A stretch of DNA of 64,000 nt, from NCBI GenBank assembly GCA_947486785.1, contig CANKUU010000010.1, positions 61,272-125,271 on the forward strand, given 5' to 3'. This DNA is from an uncultured Flavobacteriaceae bacterium (GTDB lineage Bacteria; Bacteroidota; Bacteroidia; Flavobacteriales; Flavobacteriaceae). Numbering within the stretch: position 1 is the first letter of the stretch; every line of letters starts with the position of its first letter. The position numbers and the translations under genes were made by a program. The notes beneath the pieces were generated by a model. That model was not told where the DNA came from. It worked only from the letters and a program-made list of their open reading frames with translations, and did no database searches. Positions 26,142 through 51,649 of this stretch are shown one piece after another.

Positions 26142-26215
26142 CGGTCTGGACGGGACTCGAACCCGCGACCCCCTGCGTGACAGGCAGGTATTCTAACCAA
26201 CTGAACTACCAGACC
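26142..26215 (-). tRNA. tRNA-Asp (GTC)
   Basis: Minus strand GGTCTGGTAGTTCAGTTGGTTAGAATACCTGCCTGTCACGCAGGGGGTCGCGGGTTCGAGTCCCGTCCAGACCG; cloverleaf, anticodon GTC, CCA not encoded. Confidence 0.97.
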
Positions 26216-27745: not shown

Positions 27746-30700
27746 TCAATTTAATTTAAAGTGCACCTTATGCGCTTCCAGTTGATCTAAGAGTTCACTT
27801 GAAATTTGAACTTTTTGTTTTCTAGAAGACAGAACTACTTTTATTTCTTGATCCATTTCATAGACAATAAAGTTAAGGGTTTGGTTACCTTGATGTGAAA
27901 CTAAGGTGTCTTTTAGCTTATACACATCCTCTTCTTTTAACTCGTCGATATTAAGCTTAATGGTTAATTTTTTCGCATATTGATCCATTACTTCTTGTAG
28001 CAACATAAAACTATTAAACTGCATTCTAGGCGGTCCTTTTTTTTGTGTTTCTCGATTAACCCATCCGTCCTTTATAAAGATTTTAACATATACAAAAGAA
28101 TTGATCATTAAAAAATGTCTAAACTTTAAATACTCTTCACCAAAAATTCGAAATTCATAAGATTCGGTATAATCTTCCATTGTAAATAAAGCCCAACCTT
28201 TTCCGTTTTTAGAAACTCGATGCTGAACGTCAGTAATTACCCCTGCTAAAGTAAGCTCATGATTTACATACTTCTCCATATCGTTGATATAGGAAATACT
28301 AGCATTACAAAAAGATTTAATTTCTGTTTTAAAATCATCTAAAGGGTGACCTGATATATAGATACCTACCACTTCTTTTTCTCTACGTAATTTTTCCATG
28401 GTACCCCATTCTTCACAGGGTGGCACTTCAGGCTCAGGAATTTCAGCCTCTGAACTTCCCCCAAACATATCTATCTGCGCAGAATTTTTATTCTCTTGGA
28501 ATCGGTTTGCTGACTTTATTACTTTTTCTAAAAATGTTATGTTGTCTCCATCGGTATGAAAATACTGAGCACGATGGGTAGTGCCAAAAGAATCAAAACC
28601 ACCTGCAACAGCCAATCCTTCGAAAGCTCTTTTATTTGCCGAACGCAAATCAATTCGCTTCGCTAAGTCAAATACAGATTTAAAAGGTCCATCCTTTTTA
28701 CGATGCGCAACTATAGTTTCTACAGCAGAGCGTCCTACCCCTTTTATAGCTCCCATTCCAAAACGAACTGCTCCCCGCTTGTTTACCGCAAACTTATAGA
28801 AAGATTCATTAACATCTGGGCCTAAAACTTCTAAGCCCATACGTTTACATTCTTCCATAAAGAAAGTAACCTGTTTTATGTCGTTCATGTTATTACTTAA
28901 CACTGCCGCCATATATTCTGCGGGATAATGCGCTTTTAAATAGGCTGTTTGGTAGGCGATATACGCATAACAAGTAGAGTGACTTTTATTAAAAGCATAA
29001 CTAGCAAAAGCTTCCCAATCTTTCCATATTTTTTCTAGTTTTTCAACATCATGACCCTTTTCAGAAGCTTGTGCAATAAATTTTGGTTTCATTTTCGCCA
29101 AAACATCAGCTTGCTTTTTACCCATTGCCTTTCGCAATACATCGGCCTCACCTTTTGAAAAACCAGCTAATTTTTGTGACAAAAGCATTACTTGCTCTTG
29201 GTACACGGTAATTCCGTAGGTTTCTTTTAAGTACTCTTCCATATCAGGAAGGTCATAAGTGATTTCTTGATCGCCATGTTTACGAGCAATAAAACTAGGA
29301 ATATAGTCCATCGGTCCAGGGCGATATAAAGCATTCATTGCAATTAAATCACCAAAAACTGATGGCTTTAGAGATCGCATATGTTTTTGCATTCCCGGAG
29401 ATTCATATTGAAAAACCCCTACTGTTTCTCCTCGTTGAAAAAGCTCATAGGTCTTTTCATCATCCAATGGAAAATCATCAGGCACCAAATCAATATCATG
29501 CTTGGCTTTTACAATTTTAACCGTGTCTTTGATTAAAGTCAGCGTTTTTAATCCTAAGAAATCCATTTTTAATAATCCTGCACTTTCAACGACAGAATTA
29601 TCAAATTGGGTTACATATAAATCAGAATCTTTTGCCGTTGCAACAGGCACAAAATTGGTAATATCGTCTGGTGTGATAATAACACCACAAGCATGAATTC
29701 CGGTATTTCTAACAGATCCCTCTAGGGTTCTTGCCATTTTTAAGGTTTGCCCTTCTAAATCGTCACCATCATGTATGTTTAGCAACTGATTTATTTTTTC
29801 TAAATCTTCTGCTCTAAACTTCTCTTTTAATTCTGCTTCGGTTTTGTTAAAAATTTTACCCAACTTTGACATTGTGGGTATCAACTTAGCTATTCGGTCT
29901 GCATCTCCAAGTGGTAAATCAAGTACACGTGCGGTATCACGAATAGATGATTTTGCAGCCATAGTACCGTAAGTAATAATCTGAGCTACTTGACTTGATC
30001 CGTATTTATTTATTACATAGTCCATAACACGACTACGACCTTCATCATCAAAATCAATATCAATATCGGGCATTGACACGCGTTCAGGATTCAAAAAACG
30101 CTCAAAAAGTAAATCATACTTTAGAGGATCTATATTCGTAATAGTTAAACAATAAGCCACTACAGAACCTGCTGCAGAACCCCTACCCGGACCTACCGAA
30201 ACATCCATATTTCGAGCTTCACGAATAAAGTCTTCGGTAATTAAAAAATAACCTGGATACCCCGAATTTTTTATCGTGTCTAACTCAAAATCAATACGTT
30301 CTCTGATTTCATCGGTAATTTCCCCGTATCGTTTTTTTGCACCCAAATAAGTGATGTGTCGCAGATAAGCATTTTCACCTCGATTTCCTCCATCGACATC
30401 AGCTGGGTCTTTAAACTCTTCGGGGAAATCAAATTTAGGTAACAGCACATCACGTGCCAGCTCATAAGGCTCTACTTTATCAAGTACTTCTTGTATATTT
30501 ACTATAGATTCTGGTAGATCTTTAAACAGCTCCTTCATCTCATCTTGAGACTTAAAATAGTACTCTTGGTTGGGCAATCCGTAGCGATAGCCACGTCCTC
30601 TTCCAATGGGTGTTGCCTGCTTTTCACCGTCTTTTACACACAATAAAATATCATGAGCATCAGCGTCTTCTTTTGCACAATAGTAGGTATTATTAGATGC

Positions 30701-32128
30701 TATTAATTTAACCTGATGCTTTTTTGCCATAGGTATCAAAACCTTATTTACACGGTCTTCATCTTCTTGCCCATGCCGCATGATTTCGACATATAAATCG
30801 TCACCAAACTGTTCTTTCCACCAAATTAAAGCCTCCTCTGCTTGCTTTTCACCAACATTTAAAATTTTACTCGGCACTTCACCATAAAGGTTTCCGGTAA
30901 GCACAATAACATCCTCTTTATATTTTTCAATTACAGCTCTATCAATACGTGGCACATAATAAAATCCGTCAGTATAAGCTATAGACGACATTTTTGCTAA
31001 ATTATGATACCCTTTTTTATTCTTTGCCAAAAGCACAATTTGATAACCATAATCTTTTACTTTCTTATTGGTATGATCATCACAAACAAAAAATTCACAC
31101 CCAATAATCGGTTTTAGCTCTGTTTCTGTGGGCAGCTCTCCTTTTTCAATAGCCTTTTCATTTCGCTCTTTTACCCCTTTGTTATTTGCTTTTATTTCTT
31201 TTACAAAATGGAAAGCTCCCATCATATTTGCATGATCGGTAAGTGCTACGGCTGGCATTTTTTCAGCTGCAGCAGATTGCACTAAATCTCTGATCGATAT
31301 GGTAGACTGTAAAACTGAGAACTGAGAGTGGTTATGCAAGTGAGCAAATGAACTCTCTGAAAGGGTTTGAATGTTTGCAGTTAATTCTTCTTCGGATGCA
31401 CTACTAGCTTCTTTTCTTAAAAGAGCATCAGCAATTTTTTTAGATGCCTTTTTAAGATTGATATGCTTTAAGCCTATTAATTCAATGGGCTTCGGATTTG
31501 CTTCTGAAAAACTATCAAAGTACCCTGCCTCAACATCTAACAATTCAAGAGAATAGTGCTTTCTTCTAACAAGCTCTAAGAAACACCTTGTAGTAGCTTC
31601 AACATCGGCGGTTGCATTATGTGCTTCTGCAAATGGCTCTCCAAATAAATATTGATGTAACTCCGTTAGGGTAGGAAGCTTAAACCTACCCCCTCTACCC
31701 CCGGGTATTTGACAAAGTGCTGCAGTTTGCTCTGTACAAGTATCTAAAACAGGAAGCTCTTGTAACTGATTTTCAACGCCCAAACGATGAAACTCTGCTC
31801 CCATAATATTCAAGTCAAAACCTACATTTTGACCTACAATAAATTTGGTCTTAGACATTGCTTCCTTAAACTTAGCCAAAACCTCAGCTAAAGGAACGCC
31901 TCTTTGCTCTGCTAATTCTGTAGAAATGCCATGAATTTGTTCTGCATCAAACGGAATATTAAACCCTTCTGGCTTCACCAAATAATCTTGATGCTCTAAA
32001 ACATTACCCATTTCGTCATGCAACTGCCACGCTATTTGAATGCATCGAGGCCAATTATCGGTATGGGTATAAGGTAGGTTCCAGTTTTTAGGAAGACCCG
32101 TAGTTTCGGTGTCAAAAATTAGATACAT
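27746..32128 (-). CDS. dnaE: DNA polymerase III alpha subunit with N-terminal DEDDh 3'-5' exonuclease domain
   Basis: N-terminal IFDTETTG...HNATAD; PHP HLHNHSQFS; GPGRGSAAGS, RVSMPDIDIDFD, KMDFLGL, YAFNKSH; clamp motif QIDMF. Confidence 0.97.
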   Translation of the reverse strand: MYLIFDTETTGLPKNWNLPYTHTDNWPRCIQIAWQLHDEMGNVLEHQDYLVKPEGFNIPFDAEQIHGISTELAEQRGVPLAEVLAKFKEAMSKTKFIVGQNVGFDLNIMGAEFHRLGVENQLQELPVLDTCTEQTAALCQIPGGRGGRFKLPTLTELHQYLFGEPFAEAHNATADVEATTRCFLELVRRKHYSLELLDVEAGYFDSFSEANPKPIELIGLKHINLKKASKKIADALLRKEASSASEEELTANIQTLSESSFAHLHNHSQFSVLQSTISIRDLVQSAAAEKMPAVALTDHANMMGAFHFVKEIKANNKGVKERNEKAIEKGELPTETELKPIIGCEFFVCDDHTNKKVKDYGYQIVLLAKNKKGYHNLAKMSSIAYTDGFYYVPRIDRAVIEKYKEDVIVLTGNLYGEVPSKILNVGEKQAEEALIWWKEQFGDDLYVEIMRHGQEDEDRVNKVLIPMAKKHQVKLIASNNTYYCAKEDADAHDILLCVKDGEKQATPIGRGRGYRYGLPNQEYYFKSQDEMKELFKDLPESIVNIQEVLDKVEPYELARDVLLPKFDFPEEFKDPADVDGGNRGENAYLRHITYLGAKKRYGEITDEIRERIDFELDTIKNSGYPGYFLITEDFIREARNMDVSVGPGRGSAAGSVVAYCLTITNIDPLKYDLLFERFLNPERVSMPDIDIDFDDEGRSRVMDYVINKYGSSQVAQIITYGTMAAKSSIRDTARVLDLPLGDADRIAKLIPTMSKLGKIFNKTEAELKEKFRAEDLEKINQLLNIHDGDDLEGQTLKMARTLEGSVRNTGIHACGVIITPDDITNFVPVATAKDSDLYVTQFDNSVVESAGLLKMDFLGLKTLTLIKDTVKIVKAKHDIDLVPDDFPLDDEKTYELFQRGETVGVFQYESPGMQKHMRSLKPSVFGDLIAMNALYRPGPMDYIPSFIARKHGDQEITYDLPDMEEYLKETYGITVYQEQVMLLSQKLAGFSKGEADVLRKAMGKKQADVLAKMKPKFIAQASEKGHDVEKLEKIWKDWEAFASYAFNKSHSTCYAYIAYQTAYLKAHYPAEYMAAVLSNNMNDIKQVTFFMEECKRMGLEVLGPDVNESFYKFAVNKRGAVRFGMGAIKGVGRSAVETIVAHRKKDGPFKSVFDLAKRIDLRSANKRAFEGLAVAGGFDSFGTTHRAQYFHTDGDNITFLEKVIKSANRFQENKNSAQIDMFGGSSEAEIPEPEVPPCEEWGTMEKLRREKEVVGIYISGHPLDDFKTEIKSFCNASISYINDMEKYVNHELTLAGVITDVQHRVSKNGKGWALFTMEDYTESYEFRIFGEEYLKFRHFLMINSFVYVKIFIKDGWVNRETQKKGPPRMQFNSFMLLQEVMDQYAKKLTIKLNIDELKEEDVYKLKDTLVSHQGNQTLNFIVYEMDQEIKVVLSSRKQKVQISSELLDQLEAHKVHFKLN

Positions 32129-32553: not shown

Positions 32554-32618
32554 CACCCCTTTTAAAGGACAAAAAAGAATTAATAACAAGGGTCGGGCAC
32601 CCAACAAATTAATGTGAT

Positions 32619-34281: not shown

Positions 34282-36618
34282 ATGAATAAACCCGTTACCG
34301 CATTTTGGGTTGTTTTAACCGTTTGCTTTTTAAGTTTCTCTTGTAAACAAAAAAATGATTCAGAAAATCTTATCACTCTTAACCAAAGTAAAAAATCTTT
34401 ACCCAACGTCATAGACTTTACCTTTGATGTAAAACCTATTATTTCTGATCGATGTTTTAAATGCCACGGACCAGATAAAAATGCTATTGAAGGTGGCTTA
34501 TCGTTAAACACTCCAGAAGATGCCTATAAAGCACTTGGCGAGGAGCAAGATCATTTTGCTATTGTACCAAAAGAGATTAAAAAAAGCACATTGATTGAGC
34601 GTATATATAGCGACGATCCTAACCTGCAAATGCCTCCACCAGAATCTAATTTACAGCTAACAGACTATGAGAAAGCTGTTTTACAAAAATGGATTGAACA
34701 AGGCGCAAAATACAAACCACATTGGGCGTTTAGCCCTCCTACCAAACCAGAAGTTCCAAAAACAGCCAAAGATTGGGTAAACAATGAAATTGATAATTTT
34801 ATTCTTGCTAAACTGGAACAAAACGGACTTACACCAAACAAAAAAGCTACAAAAGAAAAACTCATAAGACGTATTTCATTCGATCTTACTGGCCTACCGC
34901 CAACAGTATCTCAAATCGAAAATTTCATTAAAGACAGCTCTGAAAAAGCATACGAAAAACTAATTGACACGCTACTTTCCACAACCGATTATGCAGAGAA
35001 TATGGCCGCCGAATGGATGGATATATCAAGATATGCCGATACGCATGGCTACCAAGATGATTTTGAAAGAACCATGTGGCCTTGGAGAGATTGGGTAATT
35101 CATGCTTTTAGTAAAAACATGCCTTATGATAAATTTGTCACTTATCAGCTTGCTGGTGACTTGCTGCCCAATGCAAACTTAGAACAAATTCTTGCTACAG
35201 GCTTTAACAGAAATCATAAGATTACTGCTGAAGGTGGTGTTATACCTGAAGAATATAGAATAGAATATGTAGAGGATAGAACTACTACTTTAGGTATTGC
35301 ATTTTTAGGGCTTACTTTAGAATGCGCAAGGTGCCACGATCACAAATATGACCCAATTAGTCAAAAAGCACATTTTCAATTTTTTAGTTTTTTTAATTCT
35401 ATCCCTGAAAAAGGACTTCTTAACGGAATGAAAGATCTTGGCGAACCTTACATTAAAATAACAGAAAAAGAAGCTAAAGGTGTTTTATCTTTTATCAATA
35501 TGAAAAACAACCCTACCAAAGAGGTGAGCGTTATGGTGATGAAAGAAATGAGTAAGCCCAGACCTTCATTTATTTTAAATCGTGGCGTATATGACCAACC
35601 CACTACCGAAGTATTTCCGAATACTCCTACATCTATTTTAGCATACCCCCAAGAGTACCCTAAAAATAGGCTTGGACTGGCAAAGTGGTTATTCCACAAA
35701 AAGAATCCATTAACTGCCAGAGTTGCTGTTAACAGACTTTGGCAGCGTATGTTTGGCAATGGCATTGTAAGTACTTCTTACGATTTTGGTAATCAAGGAG
35801 CACTACCAACTCATCCTGAATTATTAGATTTTTTAGCACTTAAATTCCGGGATGAAGGGTGGGATATTCGAAAAATGCTAAAGTATATTGCGCTATCTGA
35901 AACCTATCAACAAAGTACTTTGGTGAGCGCTGAATTGTTAGATAAAGATCCAGAAAATAAGCTCTTGGCACGAGCTCCACGTATTCGACTTTCCGCTCAA
36001 ATAATTCGTGATCAAGCCTTGTCTGTTAGTGGGCTTTTACACAAAGAACTTGGCGGACCTAGTGTAAGGCCATATCAACCAGAAGGAATTTGGGAGGAAA
36101 CAACCGGTGGTGGTGGTGGAAGTACTGCCTCATATATTCCTAGCAAAGGCAATGATCTTTACCGAAAAAGTATTTATACCTTTTGGAAACGTACTGTACC
36201 CCCGCCAAGCATGATGACATTTGACGCTTCTTCACGAGATATTTGCTCTGTAAAAAGACAAGAAACTAATACGCCATTACAAGCATTAGTTTTATTAAAT
36301 GATCCTCAGATTATTGAAGCCTCAAGAGCTTTGGCACTAAAAGCAATTACATCTGATGAACAATCGATAGAAGGACGAATACAGTACGCTTTTCAACGTG
36401 CTACCAGTAGACTAGCTAATGATATAGAACTTGCAAGCTTAAGTAAGTATTATAAAGAAATGCTTGTTCAAGTACAAAACAACGAGGTACAACCAGAAAC
36501 TTATTTGGCTATCGGCGATTATGCTATTCCGAAAGATATTGATCAGATAGCTCTAGCGGCATTATCTCTAACCTGTCATACCATTCTAAATTTAGACGAA
36601 ACAATCTCAAGAGGATAA
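34282..36618 (+). CDS. Planctomycete-type cytochrome c / DUF1549 / DUF1553 (PSD1) lipoprotein
   Basis: Lipobox FSC; CFKCH and CARCH heme-c motifs; HWAF, NEIDNFI, LIRRISFDLTGLPPT, WMDISRYADTHG, NRLGLAKWL, HPELLDFLA, TNTPLQALVLLND. Confidence 0.9.
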   Translation: MNKPVTAFWVVLTVCFLSFSCKQKNDSENLITLNQSKKSLPNVIDFTFDVKPIISDRCFKCHGPDKNAIEGGLSLNTPEDAYKALGEEQDHFAIVPKEIKKSTLIERIYSDDPNLQMPPPESNLQLTDYEKAVLQKWIEQGAKYKPHWAFSPPTKPEVPKTAKDWVNNEIDNFILAKLEQNGLTPNKKATKEKLIRRISFDLTGLPPTVSQIENFIKDSSEKAYEKLIDTLLSTTDYAENMAAEWMDISRYADTHGYQDDFERTMWPWRDWVIHAFSKNMPYDKFVTYQLAGDLLPNANLEQILATGFNRNHKITAEGGVIPEEYRIEYVEDRTTTLGIAFLGLTLECARCHDHKYDPISQKAHFQFFSFFNSIPEKGLLNGMKDLGEPYIKITEKEAKGVLSFINMKNNPTKEVSVMVMKEMSKPRPSFILNRGVYDQPTTEVFPNTPTSILAYPQEYPKNRLGLAKWLFHKKNPLTARVAVNRLWQRMFGNGIVSTSYDFGNQGALPTHPELLDFLALKFRDEGWDIRKMLKYIALSETYQQSTLVSAELLDKDPENKLLARAPRIRLSAQIIRDQALSVSGLLHKELGGPSVRPYQPEGIWEETTGGGGGSTASYIPSKGNDLYRKSIYTFWKRTVPPPSMMTFDASSRDICSVKRQETNTPLQALVLLNDPQIIEASRALALKAITSDEQSIEGRIQYAFQRATSRLANDIELASLSKYYKEMLVQVQNNEVQPETYLAIGDYAIPKDIDQIALAALSLTCHTILNLDETISRG

Positions 36619-36621
36619 ACT

Positions 36622-38115
36622 ATGAGTGAAAAAAAAATTATACACGAACGATCTCTCATATTAAATAGGAGAGCATTTTTAGAGAAATCAGCCTTAGGTA
36701 TTGGAGGAGCAGCACTATCCTCTCTTTTGGGAGTAAATTGTTTTCGAAAAACCGAAAGTGGGGTGCTTACCCCAGATTCGAGTTCAAGTGGCATTAAAGG
36801 AGCTTTAACCTCATTGCACCATCCAGCAAAAGTAAAACGGGTGATTTACCTATTTCAAAGTGGAGGGCCTTCGCAATTAGAGCTTTTTGACTATAAACCT
36901 ACATTAAATAAACGAAGAGGTGAAGATTTACCCGAATCTATTAGAAACGGGCAACGCCTTACCGGCATGACTTCTGGTCAAGACAAATTTCCATTAGTAG
37001 GCTCTCCATTTAACTTCAAACAATATGGAAAAAGTGGCACTTGGATTAGTGACTTGCTACCCCATATTGGAAAAATGGCTGATGATATTTGTTTGGTAAA
37101 ATCAATGTATACCGAAGCAATTAATCATGACCCAGCAGTCACCTTTTTTCAAACAGGATCACAACAACCCGGAAGACCTAGCATCGGCTCTTGGTTGAGC
37201 TACGGTTTGGGTAGTGAAAATGAAAATCTACCCTCTTTTACCGTAATGCTCTCAAGAGGTACCGGAAGACCAAAGAGTCAACCCTTGTACACAAGATTAT
37301 GGGGTAACGGTTTTTTGCACTCCTTACATCAAGGCGTGCAGTTTAGGGCTGCAAAAGACCCCGTACTCTACTTAAATGATCCAGAAGGTACTACCAAAAG
37401 TACAAAACGAGCTATGTTAGATCAATTAGCAGCACTCAACGACCAACATTACCAAGAAAATGGAGATCCAGAAATACAAAGTAGAATTGCACAATATGAG
37501 ATGGCTTATCGTATGCAAACTTCAGTACCTGAAGTAATGAATACCGATAAAGAACCTGATTATATTTACAAAATGTACGGTAGTGATGCTAAAATACCGG
37601 GCACTTTTGCAGCAAATTGCCTTTTAGCAAGAAGGTTAGCAGAACAAAACGTGCGCTTTATACAATTATATCATATGGGTTGGGATCAACATGGTGATTT
37701 GCCTGCGGCCATTGAACGTCAAGCAAAAGATGTGGATCAAGCTTCCGCTGCACTCATTGCAGATTTAAAACAGAGAGGAATGTTAGAAGACACTTTGGTG
37801 GTTTGGGGTGGAGAATTTGGCCGAACCAATTATTCCCAAGGTTTGTTAACCGATACCAATTACGGAAGAGATCATCACCCCCGATGCTTTTCTATGTGGA
37901 TGGCGGGTGGCGGCATTAAACCCGGAATTGTTTACGGCGAAACCGATGAGTTTGGATATAATATTACCGAAAACCCCGTTCATGTGCATGATTTTCAAGC
38001 AACCATGCTTCATCAACTAGGCATAGATCATGAGAAACTAGTTTATAAATATCAAGGAAGAAGGTTTCGATTAACAGACGTTGAAGGCAAAATAATTAAA
38101 GATATTTTAACCTAG
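36622..38115 (+). CDS. DUF1501 family protein (alkaline phosphatase/sulfatase-like fold), Tat-type signal
   Basis: NRRAFL twin-arginine motif; AKVKRVIYLFQSGGPSQ, INHDPA, GWDQH, VVWGGEFGRT, RDHH, HDFQAT. Confidence 0.9.
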   Translation: MSEKKIIHERSLILNRRAFLEKSALGIGGAALSSLLGVNCFRKTESGVLTPDSSSSGIKGALTSLHHPAKVKRVIYLFQSGGPSQLELFDYKPTLNKRRGEDLPESIRNGQRLTGMTSGQDKFPLVGSPFNFKQYGKSGTWISDLLPHIGKMADDICLVKSMYTEAINHDPAVTFFQTGSQQPGRPSIGSWLSYGLGSENENLPSFTVMLSRGTGRPKSQPLYTRLWGNGFLHSLHQGVQFRAAKDPVLYLNDPEGTTKSTKRAMLDQLAALNDQHYQENGDPEIQSRIAQYEMAYRMQTSVPEVMNTDKEPDYIYKMYGSDAKIPGTFAANCLLARRLAEQNVRFIQLYHMGWDQHGDLPAAIERQAKDVDQASAALIADLKQRGMLEDTLVVWGGEFGRTNYSQGLLTDTNYGRDHHPRCFSMWMAGGGIKPGIVYGETDEFGYNITENPVHVHDFQATMLHQLGIDHEKLVYKYQGRRFRLTDVEGKIIKDILT

Positions 38116-38121
38116 TTCGCT

Positions 38122-40173
38122 ATGATTACACTTGGTATTCAAATTGGTCACTTTCATCCACTTTTGGTGCACTTACCTATCGGCATCATTGTATTAGCCT
38201 GTGCTATAGAAATTTATGCTAAAATAAAGAACAAACCTGCTGATGAGGATCTCCTACTTTTTATATTGGCTACCGCAAGTATTACAGCGCTTCTTTCTTT
38301 AGGTACAGGATGGCTATTAGGAGAAGAAGGTGGTTTTGATGAAGAACTTCTTTTTCGGCACCGTTGGATGGCCATTGCCTTTACAATAGCCTCCATTTTG
38401 TTATTTTTTGTAAAACGGTCAAAAAAGCCCCTCTCAAAAAAACTGTACCCTTTATTATTTGGTTTGGTTATAATTTTAATTTCAATTACTGGTCATTTAG
38501 GAGGTAATATGACGCACGGTGAAGACTACTTGTTTAGAGAAACAGGCGGCAAAGAAATTGTAATTAAAGATATAGCAGAGGCAAACGTACATACCGATAT
38601 TGTGCAACCCATACTAGATTCAAAATGTGTAAGCTGTCACAATCAAAAAAAATTAAAAGGTGGGCTTCTCATGACCTCTGCAAAAGACCTTTTAAAAGGA
38701 GGTGATTCTGGTAGTATTTTTGATTCTATAAATAAAAAACCCCTACTAATTAGCCGATTACATTTGCCCTTGGCTGATGAAGAACATATGCCTCCAAAAG
38801 GTAAAATACAACTGACATCAGAAGAATTAAGCTTGCTAGAATGGTGGGTAGCTAATGGTCATTGTTTAGATTGTAAAACAAAAGACTTAAAAACAACCGA
38901 AAAATTAGATATAATTTTATCTAATCTTGAAGAAGACGATTCACCACATGCGCTTATAGCAGCAGAAGTAGATCCAATTTCTGCATCATGGATTGAGGAA
39001 ATGAATACTGCAGGAATTACCGTTTATACCTTATCAGCAGATAATCCTTTGTTAATTGCCAGTCTTTTTGGAAAACAAAAAAAGTTAAAAAAACACTTAA
39101 AGACATTAACCAACTATGCTGAAAACATTGTGGAACTAAATTTAGCAAATTCTACCTTTAATGATACGTTAGTAGATTTTTTAAAGCCATTTAAAAATCT
39201 TACCAAATTACAACTACAACATACCGCAATTACAGATAACGGCATTAAAATTTTTAAAGAATTTAAATTTCTAGAATCACTTAATCTGTATGGTACAGAA
39301 GTAAGTGATGCTATTTTTGAAGTGATAAAAAACATACCAAGTTTAAAGTTTCTATACCTATATCAAACAAATGTTGGTTCAGAAAAACTAGATAAATTTC
39401 AAAAAAAATTTCCAAATATTAACATCCAACATGTGCCCAAAGATGTCTTTACTTCTAATAATTTAGCAGCTCCTAGCATTTTACCTGAAATATCATTTTT
39501 TAAAGATTCATTAACAATAGCATTAGAAACCACTTTTGAAGAAACACAAATATATTATACCCTTGATGGTTCTGAACCCGACAGTTTGGCGATAGCATAT
39601 AAAAAACCTTTTAAAATTAAAGAAACAACTACCATTAAAACGATAGCAACTAAACAAGGATGGAAACCTAGTGAAGTAAACTCTAAAATATTTACGACCT
39701 CAAAAGAAATTGTAAATGCAAATTTAAATAAGTTACCCAATGAAAATTACAGTGCAAATAAAGGCAAGACCTTAATAGATTTAAAAAGAGGAACTACAGA
39801 TTTTAAAGATGGCAATTGGTTAGGGTACGAAGCCAGTAATTTTACTGCAACACTTACCTTAAAAGAACTTGAAAACATTTCTTTGGTATCTGTTGGAGCC
39901 ATTTCTACACCCGAAAATTGGATTTTTTATCCGGCAGGCATAAGCGTTTACGCTTCTAAAAATGGTACTAATTACAAACATATTAAGAGTATTAAAATAC
40001 CCGAAGAAGATCCTAATAGCAACGTTTCTATGACATTTTTTGACGTCAAAATTCCGCCAACAAAAGCAAAATTCATTAGAGTTGAAATTAAGAGTCATTT
40101 AAAAAATCCTACTTGGCACCCAAATTCTGGTGAAAAAAGTTGGATATTCGTTGATGAAATTGTGCTCCAATAA
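38122..40173 (+). CDS. Membrane DUF2231 + cytochrome c + LRR + FN3/chitobiase-like + F5/8-type C multidomain protein
   Basis: His-rich N-terminal helices (HFHPLLVHLPIG, FRHRW, GHLGGNMTHG), CVSCH, HMPPKGK, LRR units (LTKLQLQHTAITD, LESLNLYGTEVSD), IYYTLDGSEP, C-terminal WIFVDEI. Confidence 0.82.
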   Translation: MITLGIQIGHFHPLLVHLPIGIIVLACAIEIYAKIKNKPADEDLLLFILATASITALLSLGTGWLLGEEGGFDEELLFRHRWMAIAFTIASILLFFVKRSKKPLSKKLYPLLFGLVIILISITGHLGGNMTHGEDYLFRETGGKEIVIKDIAEANVHTDIVQPILDSKCVSCHNQKKLKGGLLMTSAKDLLKGGDSGSIFDSINKKPLLISRLHLPLADEEHMPPKGKIQLTSEELSLLEWWVANGHCLDCKTKDLKTTEKLDIILSNLEEDDSPHALIAAEVDPISASWIEEMNTAGITVYTLSADNPLLIASLFGKQKKLKKHLKTLTNYAENIVELNLANSTFNDTLVDFLKPFKNLTKLQLQHTAITDNGIKIFKEFKFLESLNLYGTEVSDAIFEVIKNIPSLKFLYLYQTNVGSEKLDKFQKKFPNINIQHVPKDVFTSNNLAAPSILPEISFFKDSLTIALETTFEETQIYYTLDGSEPDSLAIAYKKPFKIKETTTIKTIATKQGWKPSEVNSKIFTTSKEIVNANLNKLPNENYSANKGKTLIDLKRGTTDFKDGNWLGYEASNFTATLTLKELENISLVSVGAISTPENWIFYPAGISVYASKNGTNYKHIKSIKIPEEDPNSNVSMTFFDVKIPPTKAKFIRVEIKSHLKNPTWHPNSGEKSWIFVDEIVLQ

Positions 40174-40184
40174 AAATCGACCTT

Positions 40185-41627
40185 ATGAATAAGCTTTATC
40201 TAAAAACTTGGCTTGCTTTTTTTATACTCTGTACTATATCATGTAAAAACAAAACAGAACAAAAAGTTACAAAAGAAGCCAAAGCACCAAATGTAGTTCT
40301 CATATTTACAGATGATCAAGGTTATCAAGATCTCGGAATATTTGGTGCAGATGATATTGCAACGCCAAATTTAGACCAAATGGCAGCCGACGGCCTAAAA
40401 CTAACTAGTTATTACGCTGCACAAGCGGTATGCTCAGCTTCAAGAGCAGGTATTCTTACGGGTTGCTATCCTAATAGAATAGGAATTCATAACGCCTTAG
40501 GACCCGATAATACCCATGGCCTAAATACTTCAGAAACTACAATAGCCGAGATGCTGCAAGCAAAGGGTTACAAAACGGCTATTTTTGGCAAATGGCACTT
40601 AGGACATCATGATCAATTTTTACCTACCCGTCATGGTTTTGACGAGTGGTTTGGTATTCCATATTCAAATGACATGTGGCCCTATCACCCACAACAAGGT
40701 AGCATTTTTAATTTTCCTGATTTACCGCTCTACGAAAATGAAACGATAATTGATACCTTAACCGACCAAACACAGTTAACTACTCAAATTACAGAACGTA
40801 GCGTTGCTTTCATAAACAAGAATAAAGACAAACCCTTTTTTTTATACGTTCCGCATCCGCAGCCACATGTGCCTTTATTTGTGTCAAATAAATTTAAAGG
40901 AAAGTCTAAAAGAGGTTTATATGGCGATGTTATTATGGAGATTGATTGGTCTGTAGGTGAAATTTTAACAGCCTTAAAAGAAAATAATCTTGAAGAAAAC
41001 ACCATCGTTATTTTTACCTCTGATAATGGCCCATGGCTCGCTTATGGTAACCACTCTGGTAGTGCCTATCCACTTCGCGAAGGCAAAGGCACCGCCTGGG
41101 AAGGAGGCCAGCGAGAACCTTTTATTATCAAGTATCCGAAACAGTTAGCCGCTGGAAGCGTATTAAACCTTCCAGTGATGGCTATTGATTTACTTCCTAC
41201 ACTTGCCGAAGTAACAGAGGCCGAACTACCTTTAAAAACAATTGATGGCAAAAGTGTTTGGAAACTGATGACCGGTGAATCTAAAGAAAGCCCACAAGAG
41301 GCCTATTTCTTCTATTATAGAGTAAATGAGTTGTTTGGAGTTCGCTATGGCGACTGGAAACTATATTTTCCACATCGTTACAGAACCATGAACGGACAAG
41401 AACCTGGTAGAGATGGCCAACCTGGCGATTATAAAATGGTAGATTTAGAAGAAATAGAACTCTATAATGTGGTTACTGATATTAGCGAAACAAAAAATGT
41501 AGCCGCTGAAAATCCAGAAGTAGTTCAAAAAATAAAATTACTTGCCAATACCATGCGAACCCGACTCGGAGATTCTTTGCTAGAATTAAAAGGTTCTGAA
41601 ACAAGGCCGGCGGGCACCATAAAATGA
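40185..41627 (+). CDS. Formylglycine-dependent S1 sulfatase, lipoprotein
   Basis: PNVVLIFTDDQGY, CSASRAGILTG (Cys-type, CxAxR variant), GKWHLG, PYSNDM, FTSDNGP, GKGTAWEGG; lipobox ISC. Confidence 0.95.
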   Translation: MNKLYLKTWLAFFILCTISCKNKTEQKVTKEAKAPNVVLIFTDDQGYQDLGIFGADDIATPNLDQMAADGLKLTSYYAAQAVCSASRAGILTGCYPNRIGIHNALGPDNTHGLNTSETTIAEMLQAKGYKTAIFGKWHLGHHDQFLPTRHGFDEWFGIPYSNDMWPYHPQQGSIFNFPDLPLYENETIIDTLTDQTQLTTQITERSVAFINKNKDKPFFLYVPHPQPHVPLFVSNKFKGKSKRGLYGDVIMEIDWSVGEILTALKENNLEENTIVIFTSDNGPWLAYGNHSGSAYPLREGKGTAWEGGQREPFIIKYPKQLAAGSVLNLPVMAIDLLPTLAEVTEAELPLKTIDGKSVWKLMTGESKESPQEAYFFYYRVNELFGVRYGDWKLYFPHRYRTMNGQEPGRDGQPGDYKMVDLEEIELYNVVTDISETKNVAAENPEVVQKIKLLANTMRTRLGDSLLELKGSETRPAGTIK

Positions 41628-42337
41628 GTAAACCCTTTAAATTTAAACAGTTTTCAATAGAACAAGACCGTTGTGCAATGAAAATTGGCACCGATAGTGT
41701 TATTCTAGGCGCATGGGCAAACATCAAAAAACAACCCAAGCAGATCTTAGACATTGGTTCGGGCACCGGCATTTTAGCACTAATGCTAGCACAAAGAAGT
41801 TCTGCAGAAAATATAGAGGCCTTAGATATCGATGAAGAGGCATACGAACAATGTGTAGACAATTTTGAATCTTCGCCTTGGGCAGATCGTTTATTTTGTT
41901 ACCATGCAGGATTAGATGAGTTTGTTGATGACCTTGAAGATCGTTACAATTTAATAGTTTCCAACCCCCCTTTTTATTCAGAAGTTGTTTCTAGCGGAAA
42001 TATATCAAGAGATATTGCCAGACAAAACCAATCACTTCCCTTTAACGAACTCTTTGAAGGGGTCTCTAAACTACTTGATAAAGATGGTATTTTTGCAAGT
42101 GTGGCTCCATTTAAAGAAGAAAAAAAAATCATTAAAATCGCCCAAATTTTCAAGCTATTTCCGCTTCGAATTTTAAGGGTTAAAGGAAATGATTCTAGCC
42201 CAATTAAACGAAGTTTTATAGAATTTACCTTTACTAAAACTGACACTAAAATAGAAGAACTTATTATTGAAAAAGAACGTCATCAGTATACTAACGATTA
42301 CAAAAAACTAACGAAAGACTTTTATTTAAAAATGTAA
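41624..42337 (+). CDS. trmN6: tRNA1(Val) (adenine37-N6)-methyltransferase
   Basis: FKFKQF, MKIGTDSVILGAW, ILDIGSGTG, IVSNPPFY, YKKLTKDFYLK; ATGA overlap with the sulfatase. Confidence 0.9.
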   Translation: MSKPFKFKQFSIEQDRCAMKIGTDSVILGAWANIKKQPKQILDIGSGTGILALMLAQRSSAENIEALDIDEEAYEQCVDNFESSPWADRLFCYHAGLDEFVDDLEDRYNLIVSNPPFYSEVVSSGNISRDIARQNQSLPFNELFEGVSKLLDKDGIFASVAPFKEEKKIIKIAQIFKLFPLRILRVKGNDSSPIKRSFIEFTFTKTDTKIEELIIEKERHQYTNDYKKLTKDFYLKM

Positions 42338-44107: not shown

Positions 44108-45871
44108 TTAATTACTTTGAAGCACTTGTTGCATTTTTTCAGCTAACAAGTAATAACCTTCTTGGTTTGGATGCAAGCCATCAGTAAAAAAGGAAGCGTT
44201 TATTTTTCCATCGGCTCTTAATAACGGAGTTCCTATTTCTTTATAATCAATAAACGCTTCGCTTGCTAAACGTTTAATTTTACGGTTTAAGTTCTTAATC
44301 AGATTTTCTTTTTCGGCTCTCGGCAGTATTCCTAAAAGTACAATTTTACTCTTAGGCTGCCTTACTTTTATAGCATCTACTAAATTCTTTAACCCCGATA
44401 AAATTTCTACTTCATTAGCAATGCCTAAATTATTAGTGCCAATTAAGAGCACTATTTTCTTCGCTTCAAAACCATCAAGTTCATCATGCTGAACTCTCCA
44501 CAATACATTTTCAATTCTATCCCAGCCAAACCCAAAATTAGCAACGCTCATGGGTGCCAAAACCTGCTGCCAAGAAGCCTCACCTCTTGCTATTGTAGCC
44601 TTTGGTTCGCCTCCCCAAAAATGAAGAATAGAATCTCCAAAAAGACATATTTCTGGGGCGCTCGCTTGGTTTAAGGCTAATATCTGCTGGTGTCTCTCTT
44701 CCCATTTATAAACAGAAATATCTCTACTTTGTGTAACCGGAATGGTAGTTATCAAATCACCACTATTCTCTTGTAATAGCACTCTCAACCATCTTTCATA
44801 AGCATCAGCGTATTGCATCATTCCAACATCGTTTGGATGCTTATAATCCACATACGAATCAAACTGAAGCGCTAATTCTTCTTTCTTTAAAAGAAAAACA
44901 TCCATAAAGCCTTCTGATCGTAATTTTTTAAATGCCTTATTTATCAAAAGATTAAGTTCACGATAAGCCTCATAACTTTTTGAATTGATAAATGTATTCG
45001 CGTAACCTGCATGAGCCGTAAGAAGTATAGGAATATTTGGCCTTTTTGTTTTTAAATCTTTAACTGCATTTAGTATACGTTGATACACCTTATCACCTTC
45101 AGCACCTAAATCTGGTAAACAATCTAAAATATATACTTTGGCATCAATCTCAGCCATTAGGTTAATAAGTTCTGGCTCTAAGCTGCCATTGGCAGAAAAT
45201 CCTAAATTAATAACAGGTCGTTCTAATTTTCGCTCTAAAATATTTGTCCAAGCCATACCTGGTCGAGAGGCATATGCACCTTTTACTATAGAAGAACCAT
45301 AAACAACAATAGGCTTCTCTTTTCTAGTGGGCAATGGCTTTAAAAAAGAGCGATCGCTTACACCAATCTCTAGTTTTTCTAGCTCGGCATATAATGGTAA
45401 AAACAACTGATATTCTCTGCCGTAGGTTAGGTAGGCATCAGTTTGGTCGTCTATAGTAAATGTATATGAACTTAGGCTATCAATGGTGTAAGACCCCCAG
45501 TATCGCAGCCATTCACCGTCATAAGATTTACTATATAAATCTAAACCGCTAACTCCAGTCGCAGGCATATCTGGCATCTTTATGAGCTCTTTTACTTTGT
45601 ACTTAACCTGAATATGCTGGGCATTTGACCAGAAACGGATAGACAAGCCTGAGGAGTGCTTTGACAATTTCCAAACTGGTTTTCTTAGTTTTTCCTTAGC
45701 TCTTTTTGGAAGCCGATGATAGGTAGATTCAAGCTCATTTGACCAACCTTGCCCCGATATTACCGAAAAATTGCTGTTTTCAGGGTTCCACCAGTTTACA
45801 TTTTCGGCAACTTGAGCCTGTAGGCTAACTAGTATAAAAACAAACATTAGCAAGCTTATATCTTTCTTCAT
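44108..45871 (-). CDS. Secreted SGNH/GDSL hydrolase with GxDLY N-domain and two SGNH domains
   Basis: Signal peptide; MPATGVSGLDLY; domain 1 VYGSSI...NLGFS...DYKHPND; domain 2 FGDSI...GFGWD...IGTNN...DGLHPN. Confidence 0.88.
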   Translation of the reverse strand: MKKDISLLMFVFILVSLQAQVAENVNWWNPENSNFSVISGQGWSNELESTYHRLPKRAKEKLRKPVWKLSKHSSGLSIRFWSNAQHIQVKYKVKELIKMPDMPATGVSGLDLYSKSYDGEWLRYWGSYTIDSLSSYTFTIDDQTDAYLTYGREYQLFLPLYAELEKLEIGVSDRSFLKPLPTRKEKPIVVYGSSIVKGAYASRPGMAWTNILERKLERPVINLGFSANGSLEPELINLMAEIDAKVYILDCLPDLGAEGDKVYQRILNAVKDLKTKRPNIPILLTAHAGYANTFINSKSYEAYRELNLLINKAFKKLRSEGFMDVFLLKKEELALQFDSYVDYKHPNDVGMMQYADAYERWLRVLLQENSGDLITTIPVTQSRDISVYKWEERHQQILALNQASAPEICLFGDSILHFWGGEPKATIARGEASWQQVLAPMSVANFGFGWDRIENVLWRVQHDELDGFEAKKIVLLIGTNNLGIANEVEILSGLKNLVDAIKVRQPKSKIVLLGILPRAEKENLIKNLNRKIKRLASEAFIDYKEIGTPLLRADGKINASFFTDGLHPNQEGYYLLAEKMQQVLQSN

Positions 45872-45922: not shown

Positions 45923-48223
45923 TTATACGATTTTATGCACTCTAACCTTTATTGATTTACTGCTGGGTGTTTTACTTTTATCTGCAAAGTGATGATGCGG
46001 AACCAGCACGTTTGTTTCTGGAAAATAAGCTGCCAAATTACCTTTTGGAATAGCGTAAGGAATTACTTTAAACTGAAAAGCGACTCGTTTTTCACCCTTG
46101 TACGTACTGCTTATATCAACAACATCAAATTTTTTTAGTCCTACAGAGGCCATATCCTCATTATTCATAAAAAGCACTCGCCTTTCATTATAAACACCTC
46201 TATATCTATCGTTAAGTCCATAAATAGTGGTGTTAAATTGATCATGAGAACGAATGGTCATTAGCATATACTCATCTTTCTCAAGCTTATGCTGAGGCAC
46301 CTTATTTAGGGTAAGCTGTGCTTTATGGTTGGGCAATTTACTAAAATCTAATTCGCGTGCATTGTTGGGTAAATAATATCCTGACCCTTTAGATCGCTGC
46401 TCGGTTTTGCTAAATCCTTTAACCACTTGGTCAATCTTTTCTCGAATAAGCTCATAATTTTTACCAAGTGCTTTCCAATCCATGGCATGTTTACCTTCAA
46501 AGAAGGTATCTGCAATTTCTGCTATCATTTCTGGTTCGCTCTTAATCATTGTAGATGCTGGCTTAAGCACCCCTCGAGATTGTCGAACTTGCCCCATACT
46601 ATTCTCTACGGTAATACGGCGAATTTTACCATCTTTCATATCTTTTTCTGACCTACCAAAAGTGGGCAAAATTAAAGCGGTTTTACCGGTAACTAGGTGT
46701 GTTCGATTAAGCTTAGTGCTAATTTGAACGGTAATATTACAGTTTTGAAGCGCCTCTGCGGTATATGTCGTATCTGATGCTGCCATTAAAAAATTACCCC
46801 CCAAACACATAAAAAATTTAGCCTTTCCTTCATGCATTGCTTTCATTGCACCCACCGTATCATAGCCTTCTTTATAAGGAGGTGAAAAACCTAAATACTG
46901 TTCTATATTTTTATTAAGCTCTTTGTTTACGAAATGCATAATACCCACACTTCTATCGCCTTGAACGTTGCTGTGGCCTCTTACTGGACAAGTACCTGAA
47001 TGAGGTTTACCTATTGCCCCTTTCAATAATAATAGGTTTATATACTCTCTTATATTTTCAACTCCATTTTTATGCTGGGTTAAGCCCATGGCCCAACACA
47101 CTACAATTTTAGACTTTCTTGCCAATAGATTAACCACAGCATCAACACGCTCTTTAGAAACTCCAGACTGTTCTAAAAGAGCCCTTTCATCATAGGTTTT
47201 TAAATCTGCAATTAAATTTTCATAACCATCAACGTAGTTCATTAAAAATTTATGATCAAAAATATCGCGACTAAGAACATCTAAGGTTGCTAATCGAATT
47301 AAAATTAATTTAATAAGCGGAATATCTTGATTTATTTTTACAGGAAGATGAATATCTGCAATATGATCTGCTTCGCCAATCCATCCTTTTAAATGCTGTG
47401 GATTTTTAAAATTAACTAGTCCTGATTCCTCTAAGGGGTTAATACTAATTACTTTGCCCCCATTAGCTTTACATTTAGCTAGAGCAGACAACATTCTAGG
47501 ATGGTTTGTACCTGGGTTTTGACCTGCAACAATAATTACTTCAGCCCCATATAAATCTTCAAGCTTTACAGAGCCTTTACCAATACCAAGCGTTTCTCCT
47601 AAAGCTACCCCACTAGATTCATGACACATATTAGAACAGTCGGGCATATTATTTGTACCTAGCGCGCGCGCAAACATACCGTATAAAAAAGCAGCTTCGT
47701 TACTTGATCTTCCTGAGGTATAAAAAATAGCCTCGTTTGGTGAGTTTAACTCTTTAAGTTCTGATGCAATAAGATGGTATGCTTCTTGCCAGGTTATTGG
47801 CTCATAATGCACACTACCAGGTTTAATGACAAGAGGCTCTATAATTCGTCCAAGTTTATTTAATTCATAATCTGTAAATTTAGAGAGTTCTTCTACCGAA
47901 TATTTTCTAAAAAAGTCTGAGCCAATATGAGATGTCGTTGCCTCGTCTGCCAATGCTTTTGCTCCATTTTCACAGTACTCTGCCAGCCTAGATGATTTTT
48001 TCGGATCAGGCCAGGCACAGCTCGGACAACTAAAGCCGTTTTTCTGGTTCATATCTAAAAGAGCGGTCATTGACCGTACAACCCCCATTTCTTTAAAGCT
48101 GTGCCTTAGCGCTTCTTTTACCCCTAATGCACCTGCCGCAATGCGAACTGGAGCTTTCAATTTTAAATCTGAAAAATCTTGATTTCCTCGAACGGAAACA
48201 TTTCTGTGAAAATTAGAACTCAT
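45923..48223 (-). CDS. FdhF/YdeP family molybdopterin oxidoreductase
   Basis: GFSCPSCAWPD, YCENGAKA, FYTSGRSSNEAAF, PDCSNMCHESSG, PVRGHSNVQGDR, TIRSHDQFNTTIYG, AAYFPETN. Confidence 0.93.
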   Translation of the reverse strand: MSSNFHRNVSVRGNQDFSDLKLKAPVRIAAGALGVKEALRHSFKEMGVVRSMTALLDMNQKNGFSCPSCAWPDPKKSSRLAEYCENGAKALADEATTSHIGSDFFRKYSVEELSKFTDYELNKLGRIIEPLVIKPGSVHYEPITWQEAYHLIASELKELNSPNEAIFYTSGRSSNEAAFLYGMFARALGTNNMPDCSNMCHESSGVALGETLGIGKGSVKLEDLYGAEVIIVAGQNPGTNHPRMLSALAKCKANGGKVISINPLEESGLVNFKNPQHLKGWIGEADHIADIHLPVKINQDIPLIKLILIRLATLDVLSRDIFDHKFLMNYVDGYENLIADLKTYDERALLEQSGVSKERVDAVVNLLARKSKIVVCWAMGLTQHKNGVENIREYINLLLLKGAIGKPHSGTCPVRGHSNVQGDRSVGIMHFVNKELNKNIEQYLGFSPPYKEGYDTVGAMKAMHEGKAKFFMCLGGNFLMAASDTTYTAEALQNCNITVQISTKLNRTHLVTGKTALILPTFGRSEKDMKDGKIRRITVENSMGQVRQSRGVLKPASTMIKSEPEMIAEIADTFFEGKHAMDWKALGKNYELIREKIDQVVKGFSKTEQRSKGSGYYLPNNARELDFSKLPNHKAQLTLNKVPQHKLEKDEYMLMTIRSHDQFNTTIYGLNDRYRGVYNERRVLFMNNEDMASVGLKKFDVVDISSTYKGEKRVAFQFKVIPYAIPKGNLAAYFPETNVLVPHHHFADKSKTPSSKSIKVRVHKIV

Positions 48224-51590: not shown

Positions 51591-51649
51591 TATATATTTT
51601 TAATTGATAGTTTTTAGCTAAGGTTAAAGGGTTAAATACGAAATTATTT

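Follow-up and report, generated by a model that had tools for sequence, protein, structure and literature searches.

The PSCyt and PSD domains were reportedly first defined in Rhodopirellula, by Studholme in 2004. Loci that combine DUF1501 with the PSCyt1/PSCyt2/PSD1 architecture were then presented as a conserved module for electron transport, targeted to the membrane and without a known function, with twin-arginine translocation (Tat) motifs on DUF1501 and a few Bacteroidetes among the carriers listed (Kamneva et al., 2012; PMC3542564). The same study described a four-gene form, made of DUF1501, a PPC-like protein, a PSCyt1/Big_2/PSCyt2/PSD1 protein and a PSCyt1/WD40 protein. Sulfatases and carbohydrate-binding modules were later found to neighbour PSCyt genes, which are enriched in genomes from oxic layers (He et al., 2017; PMC5615132); subsequent literature merely restates these findings. 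In Proteobacteria, uncharacterised DUF1800-DUF1501 pairs form one operon, sometimes adjoining sugar-modifying genes (PMC5122149). The literature searched on DUF1501, DUF1549, DUF1553, DUF2231 and DUF1800 yielded no experimental function, and what was found on DUF2231 amounted to a single passing mention, with nothing on its fusion to PSCyt1. Here we analyse a cassette of four genes from an uncultured Flavobacteriaceae bacterium, carried by a stretch of 64,000 nucleotides (hereafter the window; contig CANKUU010000010.1, positions 61,272 to 125,271). The cassette is a Bacteroidota variant of this known, unsolved module, a variant with a membrane-anchored cytochrome as its third partner. Its genes, delimited by open reading frames and Pfam domains, are as follows.

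34282 to 36618, plus strand: gene 1, a PSCyt1/PSCyt2/PSD1 protein of lipoprotein type, 778 amino acids
36622 to 38115, plus strand: gene 2, a Tat-exported DUF1501 protein, 497 amino acids
38122 to 40173, plus strand: gene 3, an inner-membrane DUF2231/PSCyt1/LRR/CHB_HEX_C/F5-8 protein, 683 amino acids
40185 to 41627, plus strand: gene 4, a Cys-type S1 sulfatase lipoprotein

The four genes lie on the plus strand, separated by 3, 6 and 11 bp, as an earlier note made from the letters of this DNA had stated. The composition that the note read into them was also recovered: Pfam, motif scans and the predicted helices of gene 3 agree with a lipoprotein bearing DUF1549/DUF1553 and two CxxCH motifs, a Tat-DUF1501 protein with four His/Asp clusters and no CxPxR motif, an inner-membrane protein extended by CxxCH, leucine-rich-repeat (LRR), FN3 and discoidin-like domains, and a Cys-type S1 sulfatase. 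The observation lies well outside what chance would produce, and the same order of genes 1 to 3 turns up in roughly a hundred further genomes. The idea that this might be an undescribed system did not survive, the pairing of PSCyt/PSD1 with Tat-DUF1501 being present in both of the studies cited above. Indeed, genes 1 and 2 display the same two Pfam architectures side by side and co-oriented, with a Tat signal on DUF1501 and a signal peptide on its cytochrome partner (judged by eye for gene 1); carbohydrate-binding add-on domains and occasional sulfatase neighbours are likewise common to the cassette and the published module. Genes 1 and 2 are thus this functionally uncharacterised DUF1501-PSCyt module. 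The relatives of gene 1 bear at NCBI the name 'PSD1 and planctomycete cytochrome C domain-containing protein'.

There are also differences. The published module was described in hosts of the Planctomycetes-Verrucomicrobia-Chlamydiae (PVC) group, Planctomycetes and Verrucomicrobia, whereas it is found here in a flavobacterium. The content of the four-gene form is analogous to the PSD1, DUF1501, propeller and PSCyt1 set of Bacteroidota, but there the second cytochrome is fused to WD40, and here it is anchored by DUF2231 and carries an LRR domain; the propeller of the Bacteroidota form is a separate, Tat-exported NHL protein, which is missing in the window. As far as we found, what is new is the DUF2231-cytochrome as a fixed third partner, unreported in the literature searched, together with a variable accessory slot. 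The DUF1800-DUF1501 pairs resemble the cassette in joining a Tat-DUF1501 protein to a large uncharacterised partner; unlike gene 1, however, no cytochrome domains are reported for that partner. The link of the module to intracellular membranes that had been proposed for PVC hosts (Kamneva et al., 2012) was considered for the window's host and rejected. The triad hosts met below belong to the Bacteroidota, which are not known to have such compartments.

Loci with a homologue of gene 3 were gathered from one genome per species, first by a protein scan (50 loci), then with a profile of the 260 N-terminal residues of gene 3, keeping the best 80 of at least 572 matching stretches; after removal of duplicates 117 unique loci were left, and 92 of them extend for 5 kb or more upstream. 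In 83 of these 92, gene 3 is preceded on the same strand by DUF1501, and in 81 by both PSD1 and DUF1501. Genes 1 to 3 thus make up a conserved triad, arranged as PSD1, DUF1501, slot, gene 3. It is present in Flavobacteriaceae, Cyclobacteriaceae, Spirosomaceae, Chitinophagaceae, Sphingobacteriaceae, Saprospiraceae and Fodinibius, and spans Flavobacteriales, Cytophagales, Chitinophagales and Sphingobacteriales. One might have supposed that the genes simply happen to sit together, without shared function: the flanks of the cassette are housekeeping genes (dnaE, rpsP, rimM, the TrmN-like gene and an acyl-CoA dehydrogenase gene) and it lies outside any polysaccharide utilization locus (PUL). With order and strand of genes 1 to 3 kept in 81/92 loci across several orders, this is hardly credible for the triad; accidental adjacency is possible for gene 4 and for a fifth gene, coding for a TrmN-like tRNA methyltransferase (41624-42337), which overlaps gene 4 by 4 bp.

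The slot between genes 2 and 3 varies with lineage. Among the 83 loci with DUF1501 upstream, it contains an NHL protein (45 loci), a TIM barrel (22), a rhaM-type L-rhamnose mutarotase (4) or nothing at all (12). The NHL protein is a six-bladed propeller of about 345 residues, some 50% identical across orders, often with a small CHB_HEX_C protein beside it, or else with a GH29 (glycoside hydrolase family 29) fucosidase and a glyoxalase. The TIM protein is a xylose-isomerase-like barrel of about 310 residues with a Tat signal, for which sequence and profile searches of the PDB returned no match. Both accessory proteins carry twin-arginine N-termini like that of DUF1501. The window and its four closest relatives (loci L001, L002, L003 and L005) belong to the empty-slot class, with 6 bp between genes 2 and 3. 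Most other Flavobacteriaceae have a Tat-NHL propeller and a small CHB_HEX_C gene at this junction (at about 6870-8710 in loci L004 and L006). A search of the window detected no remnant of an NHL or TIM gene, and the junction at 38115-38122 looks like a clean loss of two genes, NHL and CHB_HEX_C, in the window's clade.

Gene 3 also travels with other company. About nine loci, all from Cytophagales, display NHL followed by gene 3 without the PSD1/DUF1501 pair, which suggests that gene 3 is not tied to a single partner in the periplasm. In some Cytophagales loci with this arrangement (L031, L032, L035-L038 and L046-L049) the PSD1 and DUF1501 genes are absent within 8 kb, and the neighbours include PadR/PspC genes, a TonB receptor and an aldo-keto reductase. 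As a separate observation on homologues of gene 3, a short multi-copy repeat lies just 3' of the one in the Sphingobacterium locus L074, at 9584-9714; many contigs start or stop there, and the depth rises to as much as roughly threefold the flanking level. From runs annotated as ant metatranscriptomes come contigs of 30-140 kb of this Sphingobacterium cassette genome. These look like DNA, and the 'RNA' runs are therefore uninformative on transcription. For the window itself, a look-up aimed at expression listed no runs.

Gene 1 begins with an N-terminus (...CFLSFSC-KQK) that, by eye, looks like that of a lipoprotein, followed by three Pfam domains, PSCyt1 (E 6e-17), PSCyt2/DUF1549 (E 9e-85) and PSD1/DUF1553 (E 7e-99):

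34453 to 34644, plus strand: PSCyt1 haem-c domain of gene 1 (residues 58-121; C58xxC61H62 and Met117-Pro118; from Pfam and from the profile against solved domains)
34786 to 35403, plus strand: PSCyt2/DUF1549 domain of gene 1, including the second CxxCH (Pfam)
35665 to 36450, plus strand: PSD1/DUF1553 domain of gene 1 (Pfam)

Its two CxxCH motifs start at residues 58 and 348; at least one such motif appears in fewer than 0.2% of composition-preserving shuffles of the protein. Thirty-five syntenic homologues were aligned, and a profile built from 19 homologues was compared with the PDB. The PSCyt1 part retrieved the cytochrome FoxE (5mab, E 4.7e-4) and the alpha subunit of hydrazine synthase (5c2v, E 0.005), with CxxCH...MP...WxxxGA as the common pattern, so that this domain appears, from these alignments, to be homologous to solved haem-c domains. 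The likeness extends to the PSCyt1 domain of gene 3 and to a further solved domain (4rlr) in the form CxxCH ... (R)MP ... W(I)xxGA; it is limited to about 90 residues, the rest of genes 1 and 3 being unrelated. The second motif reads C348-A-R-C-H352-D-H-K-Y-D-P (nucleotides 35323-35337), and C348, C351, H352, H354, Y356, D357 and P358 do not vary among 19 diverse homologues. The PSD1 domain has many invariant Arg, Asp and Trp residues and a single invariant cysteine, Cys655. Sequence and profile searches of the PDB found no solved relative of either PSCyt2 or PSD1.

Gene 3 combines, according to Pfam, DUF2231, PSCyt1 (with CVSCH at residue 169), LRR, CHB_HEX_C/Fn3_assoc and F5/8 type C domains:

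38122 to 38532, plus strand: DUF2231 four-helix membrane domain with a cluster of His residues (AlphaFold2 model and conservation)
38626 to 38802, plus strand: PSCyt1 haem-c domain (C169xxC172H173; H222-M223-P-P; Pfam E 6e-6)
39019 to 39426, plus strand: leucine-rich-repeat domain (Pfam LRR_8/LRR_4)
39502 to 40170, plus strand: CHB_HEX_C/Fn3_assoc and F5/8 type C (discoidin-like) domains (Pfam)

A hydrophobicity scan shows three hydrophobic stretches, and the AlphaFold2 model, made for residues 1-285, gives four helices within residues 8-131 (8-35, 42-69, 74-99 and 103-126), with a predicted local distance difference test (pLDDT) score of 81-93; the membrane bundle is modelled with confidence, the haem-c part poorly. 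Three motifs of DUF2231 are conserved over 49 homologues, 'HPxxVHLPIG' (H12, H17), 'HxW' (H80) and 'TGHxGGNMTHGEDYL' (H125, H132), and all five of these histidines stand where helices 1, 3 and 4 reach the periplasm. We place the N-terminus, the conserved histidines and the C-terminal domains on the periplasmic side, because the loops 36-41 and 99-108 are positively charged. In the model the histidines make one site at the outer face of the membrane, where haem b or a metal could be bound. This is not what is expected from a di-haem transmembrane cytochrome b, in which two His pairs about 13 residues apart on two helices hold a haem near each face. Such a protein, of the cytochrome b561, NarI or MsrQ type, was tried for DUF2231 and rejected: its histidines are one-sided, and neither fold nor sequence matches. 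A Foldseek search of the PDB gave no significant relative (best E 0.34, generic four-helix bundles), and a profile search of the PDB gave no solved relative, with cytochrome b561 at E 6. The membrane haem-b wire, whose haem b the earlier note had called possible, is accordingly not supported.

The haem-c domain of gene 3 keeps C169xxCH and H222-M-P-P without variation, and its profile gives a marginal match to solved cytochromes c (best E 0.018). More generally, the three CxxCH motifs of genes 1 and 3 and the distal Met of 'MPP' are invariant or nearly so; the PSCyt1 domains of both proteins have in common with c-type cytochromes a conserved CxxCH and a distal ligand. The LRR domain matches that of Slit2 (2v9s, E 3e-5) and its region aligns in all homologues, those of Cytophagales and Chitinophagales ending after it. 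The 218 C-terminal residues match the C-terminal domains of a GH20 hexosaminidase (6q63, E 5e-24); at the loci sampled, these CHB_HEX_C and F5/8 domains occur in Flavobacteriaceae, Cyclobacteriaceae, some Saprospiraceae and some unclassified Bacteroidota. The best solved relative of PSCyt1 being FoxE, a periplasmic Fe(II)-oxidising cytochrome, and a conserved His/Glu/Asp cluster lying at the membrane surface of gene 3, the module might be thought to handle metal, by oxidation or uptake of iron or manganese, rather than carbohydrate. We hold this very improbable: the FoxE likeness is confined to a generic haem-c domain, and the neighbours that recur are glycan enzymes, namely GH29, GH95, rhaM, the TIM barrel, SusC/D and sulfatase.

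Gene 2 is the most constrained of the set. It is 91% identical to its nearest relatives, where gene 1 reaches 77-78% and gene 3 63-64%, and identity remains at 74-92% between Flavobacteriaceae, Cyclobacteriaceae and Saprospiraceae, far above that of its operon partners, a sign either of very strong constraint or of a recent transfer from family to family. DUF1501 is recognized at E 5e-163, with a weaker match to Phosphodiest (E 0.003); the family is large, with 26,209 cluster representatives at E<=1e-3 in a search with gene 2 alone. Two short elements are worth locating:

36664 to 36681, plus strand: twin-arginine motif N-R-R-A-F-L (residues 15-20; R16 and R17 invariant)
37804 to 37827, plus strand: strand W-G-G-E398-F-G-R-T, equivalent to the 'S-D-H/N-G' strand that carries metal ligands in sulfatases, NPP and LtaS (profile alignments)

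The twin-arginine segment aligns with the Tat signal of formate dehydrogenase FdhA. In 64 homologues at 34-58% identity the invariant residues comprise R16, R17, G81, K92, H169, G189, W191, E311, R337, R345, D355, H357, D372, D381, E398, G400, R401, G415, R416, H418 and T461; the His/Asp clusters are INHD (167), WDQH (354), RDHH (416) and HDFQ (456). Profile searches of the PDB gave 28 weak matches (E 0.007-2). All 19 of those that fall on the catalytic domain are chains of the alkaline-phosphatase (AP) superfamily, aligned on one shared segment; they include LtaS, S1 sulfatases, SGSH and phosphonate monoester hydrolase, to which a narrower profile adds ENPP4. With S1 sulfatases gene 2 shares the helix-strand segment bearing the second metal-ligand motif and a later 'D..(P/A)T.L..LG' segment, but it has neither the N-terminal DD nor C/S-x-P/A-x-R (a motif scan of the protein finds no [CS]x[PA]xR), and E-F-G stands for D-H/N-G. 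In this triplet E398 and G400 are invariant, and F399 is conserved at 90% or more. The first strand ends with G-G-P-S-Q, and the sole invariant residue of the possible nucleophile region is H169. When the DUF1501 profile is aligned with that of the gene-4 sulfatase by hhalign, just 33 columns are matched, with a probability of 23%. Lacking both the Asp pair at the N-terminus and the nucleophile motif, and with E-F-G in place of the ligand motif, gene 2 appears to be a divergent relative of sulfatases within the AP superfamily, and not a sulfatase.

This probable family membership, suggested by both Pfam and profiles, is the starting point of the main rival to the reading that we favour below. 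DUF1501 would be an ordinary metallo-hydrolase of the AP superfamily, acting on phospho- or sulfo-esters, and the cytochromes, instead of carrying catalytic electrons, would serve for substrate binding, for tethering the enzyme or for holding a redox-sensitive metal, such as iron, in the proper state. PhoD and PhoX, which use Fe3+/Ca2+, are exported by the Tat route as well. Binding domains fit this picture too, with LRR and discoidin-like domains on gene 3 and LamG or F5/8 domains common on the relatives of gene 1 (PMC3542564). Mere tethers, however, would hardly explain why three CxxCH motifs and their Met ligands are strictly conserved across orders, and the canonical AP nucleophile and ligands are absent from gene 2. 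We see this explanation as rather doubtful.

Gene 4, by contrast with gene 2, is a regular member of the formylglycine-dependent S1 sulfatases (Sulfatase PF00884, E 2.5e-62). Its formylglycine motif, C83-S-A-S-R, is encoded at nucleotides 40431-40445, the metal ligands D43-D44 and D280-N281 align with those of arylsulfatase A, and among solved structures human arylsulfatase A comes closest (E 7e-75), ahead of GalNAc-6-sulfatase, steryl-sulfatase and carrageenan sulfatases. It is thus an ordinary Cys-type S1 sulfatase. The earlier note had made it a partner in a single four-gene system, running from a membrane haem b through haem c to a metallo-DUF1501, for the sake of sulfatase activation or redox desulfation. 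Maturation of Cys-type S1 sulfatases is normally the work of FGE or anSME, which speaks against such a system. The tight packing of the four genes in the window would suit it, and so would the sulfatase-like character of DUF1501, the retention of the sulfatase downstream in the Maribacter/Zobellia clade and the frequent adjacency of PSCyt genes and sulfatases in Verrucomicrobia (PMC5615132). Yet an S1 sulfatase is found 3' of gene 3 in just 18 of 91 assessable loci, nearly all from that one flavobacterial clade, so that it is a clade-specific accessory and not a core member, an outcome that counts against the note's system by the note's own yardstick. Even there, some Maribacter loci have it 4 kb away beyond genes of opposite orientation, and loci L001, L011 and L033 lack it. 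Outside the clade, distant and different sulfatases occur in only two loci; among the sampled cassettes of Cytophagales and Chitinophagales the Spirosoma locus L122 is the only one with any. The His pattern of DUF2231 is also unfit for a two-haem transmembrane wire. We consider this four-gene system, with the sulfatase as an integral part, unlikely.

The earlier note is thus supported in part: genes 1 to 3 behave as a unit, with two haem-c-type domains and a Tat-exported protein. Periplasmic electron transfer is the most economical reading of genes 1 to 3, and we propose, with a probability of roughly 0.4, that they code for a redox enzyme of the periplasm, linked to cytochrome c, whose substrates would derive from glycans and might be of fucose type. 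The analysis establishes domains, export signals, conserved motifs and synteny; as for haem loading, complex formation, the direction of electron flow and the nature of the substrate, we infer the following picture. The three proteins would make one redox module facing the periplasm. DUF1501, Tat-exported, strongly constrained and of divergent AP-superfamily descent, would be the likely catalytic subunit; gene 1, exported by the Sec route as a lipoprotein, would be its partner, with a FoxE-like haem-c domain, a PSCyt2 domain with the second CxxCH, and PSD1. Gene 3 would anchor the set in the inner membrane by its four helices and hold the pair there through the haem-c and LRR domains on the periplasmic side. 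The module would oxidise, or otherwise process by redox chemistry, a glycan-derived substrate in the periplasm, and electrons would pass through haem c to the aerobic respiratory chain. Next to the module each lineage has its own periplasmic sugar-handling enzyme (NHL, TIM barrel, rhaM, or a GH29/GH95 fucosidase); the window's clade has none in the slot, and its S1 sulfatase would instead trim a substrate that is sulfated and perhaps of fucose type.

Two-subunit dehydrogenases of the periplasm that deliver electrons to respiration offer a parallel to this proposal. Sulfite dehydrogenase SorAB, glucoside 3-dehydrogenase and gluconate 2-dehydrogenase each pair a catalytic subunit exported by Tat with a second subunit that is a cytochrome c. 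The division of labour, the export routes and the operonic arrangement would be alike, by analogy and not by homology: the catalytic subunits of these dehydrogenases bind molybdopterin or FAD, whereas DUF1501 has a probable AP-type fold without a recognisable cofactor site.

Fucose enters the proposal through the neighbours. Alpha-L-fucosidases recur beside the cassette in four lineages: a GH29 gene sits inside the Arcicella cassette, the Dyadobacter locus runs GH95, PSD1, DUF1501, rhaM, gene 3, a GH95 gene is found near the Sphingobacterium cassette, and GH29 or GH95 accompanies it in some Chitinophagaceae. The window itself has a fucose-type PUL 8-33 kb upstream of the cassette (764-25888).

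Several points weigh against the redox enzyme that we propose. We know of no enzyme with the alkaline-phosphatase fold that performs redox chemistry. Gene 2 has no canonical N-terminal Asp pair or nucleophile motif, it presents E398-F399-G400 where its relatives carry the Asp-His/Asn-Gly metal ligands, and its AlphaFold2 model, built on an alignment of 31 sequences at 74-92% identity, is unusable (mean pLDDT 42). Haem binding by PSCyt2 is suggested by its CxxCH motif alone, and the one-sided His cluster of DUF2231 may bind a metal instead of haem. About nine loci, from Cytophagales, have NHL and gene 3 without the PSD1/DUF1501 pair. Finally, fucosidases are near 15 of 78 fully assessable loci, a raw count without a background rate.

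A bolder version of the same proposal would see in the triad an unrecognised class of glycan-processing enzymes coupled to the respiratory chain, with an AP-fold subunit performing, or depending on, electron transfer through a dedicated haem-c partner and through a new kind of membrane cytochrome, DUF2231, which would have one His-ligated site at the outer membrane face in addition to haem c. We entertain it as a tentative possibility, with more doubt than confidence. If true, the class would stand beside glycoside hydrolases and sulfatases as their oxidative equivalent, employed by thousands of PVC and Bacteroidota species. Few protein families have multiplied as strongly as DUF1501 and PSCyt/PSD1 in polysaccharide degraders of marine and fresh waters; the domains were defined in 2004 and the module described in 2012, yet their function is still unassigned. 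The Bacteroidota form is compact, has a membrane cytochrome as a constant component, and is accompanied by telling accessory enzymes (fucosidases, a mutarotase, a TIM barrel, an NHL propeller and a sulfatase). It makes this old question directly testable, all the more as module carriers such as Zobellia, Dyadobacter, Chitinophaga, Pedobacter and Sphingobacterium are, in our view, cultivable and genetically workable genera. Were the module to couple glycan processing to respiration, models of algal-polysaccharide turnover would have to include a new enzyme class.

The surroundings of the cassette can now be described. The host is a flavobacterium, because an S16-Flavobacteria ribosomal leader (Rfam RF03138, 44.8 bits) precedes rpsP at 32579-32613 and the nearest related loci come from Maribacter; the G+C content of the window is about 35%, and a lookup of the exact gene-3 protein in assemblies returned no record. 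Upstream of gene 1 come rpsP and rimM, then a spacer of 550 bp in which an Rfam scan found no match; a scan for sigma-70 promoters and terminators stayed at background level, with models that were not built for Bacteroidota promoters. The fucose-type PUL comprises the following genes.

764 to 4009: GH2-like gene
4860 to 7880: SusC
7896 to 9629: SusD
9707 to 16439: two ASPIC/UnbV FG-GAP proteins
16534 to 18990: GH95
19032 to 20270, minus strand: fuconate-dehydratase-like gene of the enolase superfamily
20394 to 21929, minus strand: GH29 with F5/8
21935 to 23002, minus strand: Gfo/Idh/MocA
22999 to 23649, minus strand: rhaM-domain protein
23656 to 25254, minus strand: SSF symporter
25256 to 25888, minus strand: TetR

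Other Maribacter/Zobellia loci have instead a SusD/ASPIC cluster immediately 3' of the cassette. On that side, the window holds a double GDSL/SGNH esterase gene (44108-45871, minus strand) and a molybdopterin oxidoreductase gene (45923-48223, minus strand), homologues of which (cluster c33) are again found downstream in loci L002 and L004. Proteins of the 3-keto-disaccharide hydrolase (DUF1080) family take part in oxidative pathways of glycoside cleavage, and one with two such domains is encoded at 53571-54944 (minus strand). Propionate metabolism is represented by the large and small subunits of methylmalonyl-CoA mutase, a carboxyl transferase and biotin carboxylase (56279-62866, minus strand). 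Two tRNA genes lie at 26142-26215 and 63911-63993. The gene for DNA polymerase III alpha (27746-32128, minus strand, 1460 amino acids) has an exonuclease domain of the RNase_T type fused at its N-terminus. A second, shorter DnaE-type polymerase (1004 amino acids) adjoins a Y-family (impB/mucB/samB) polymerase gene at 48576-52864 (minus strand), a pair that we take to have the layout of the ImuB-DnaE2 mutagenesis cassette.

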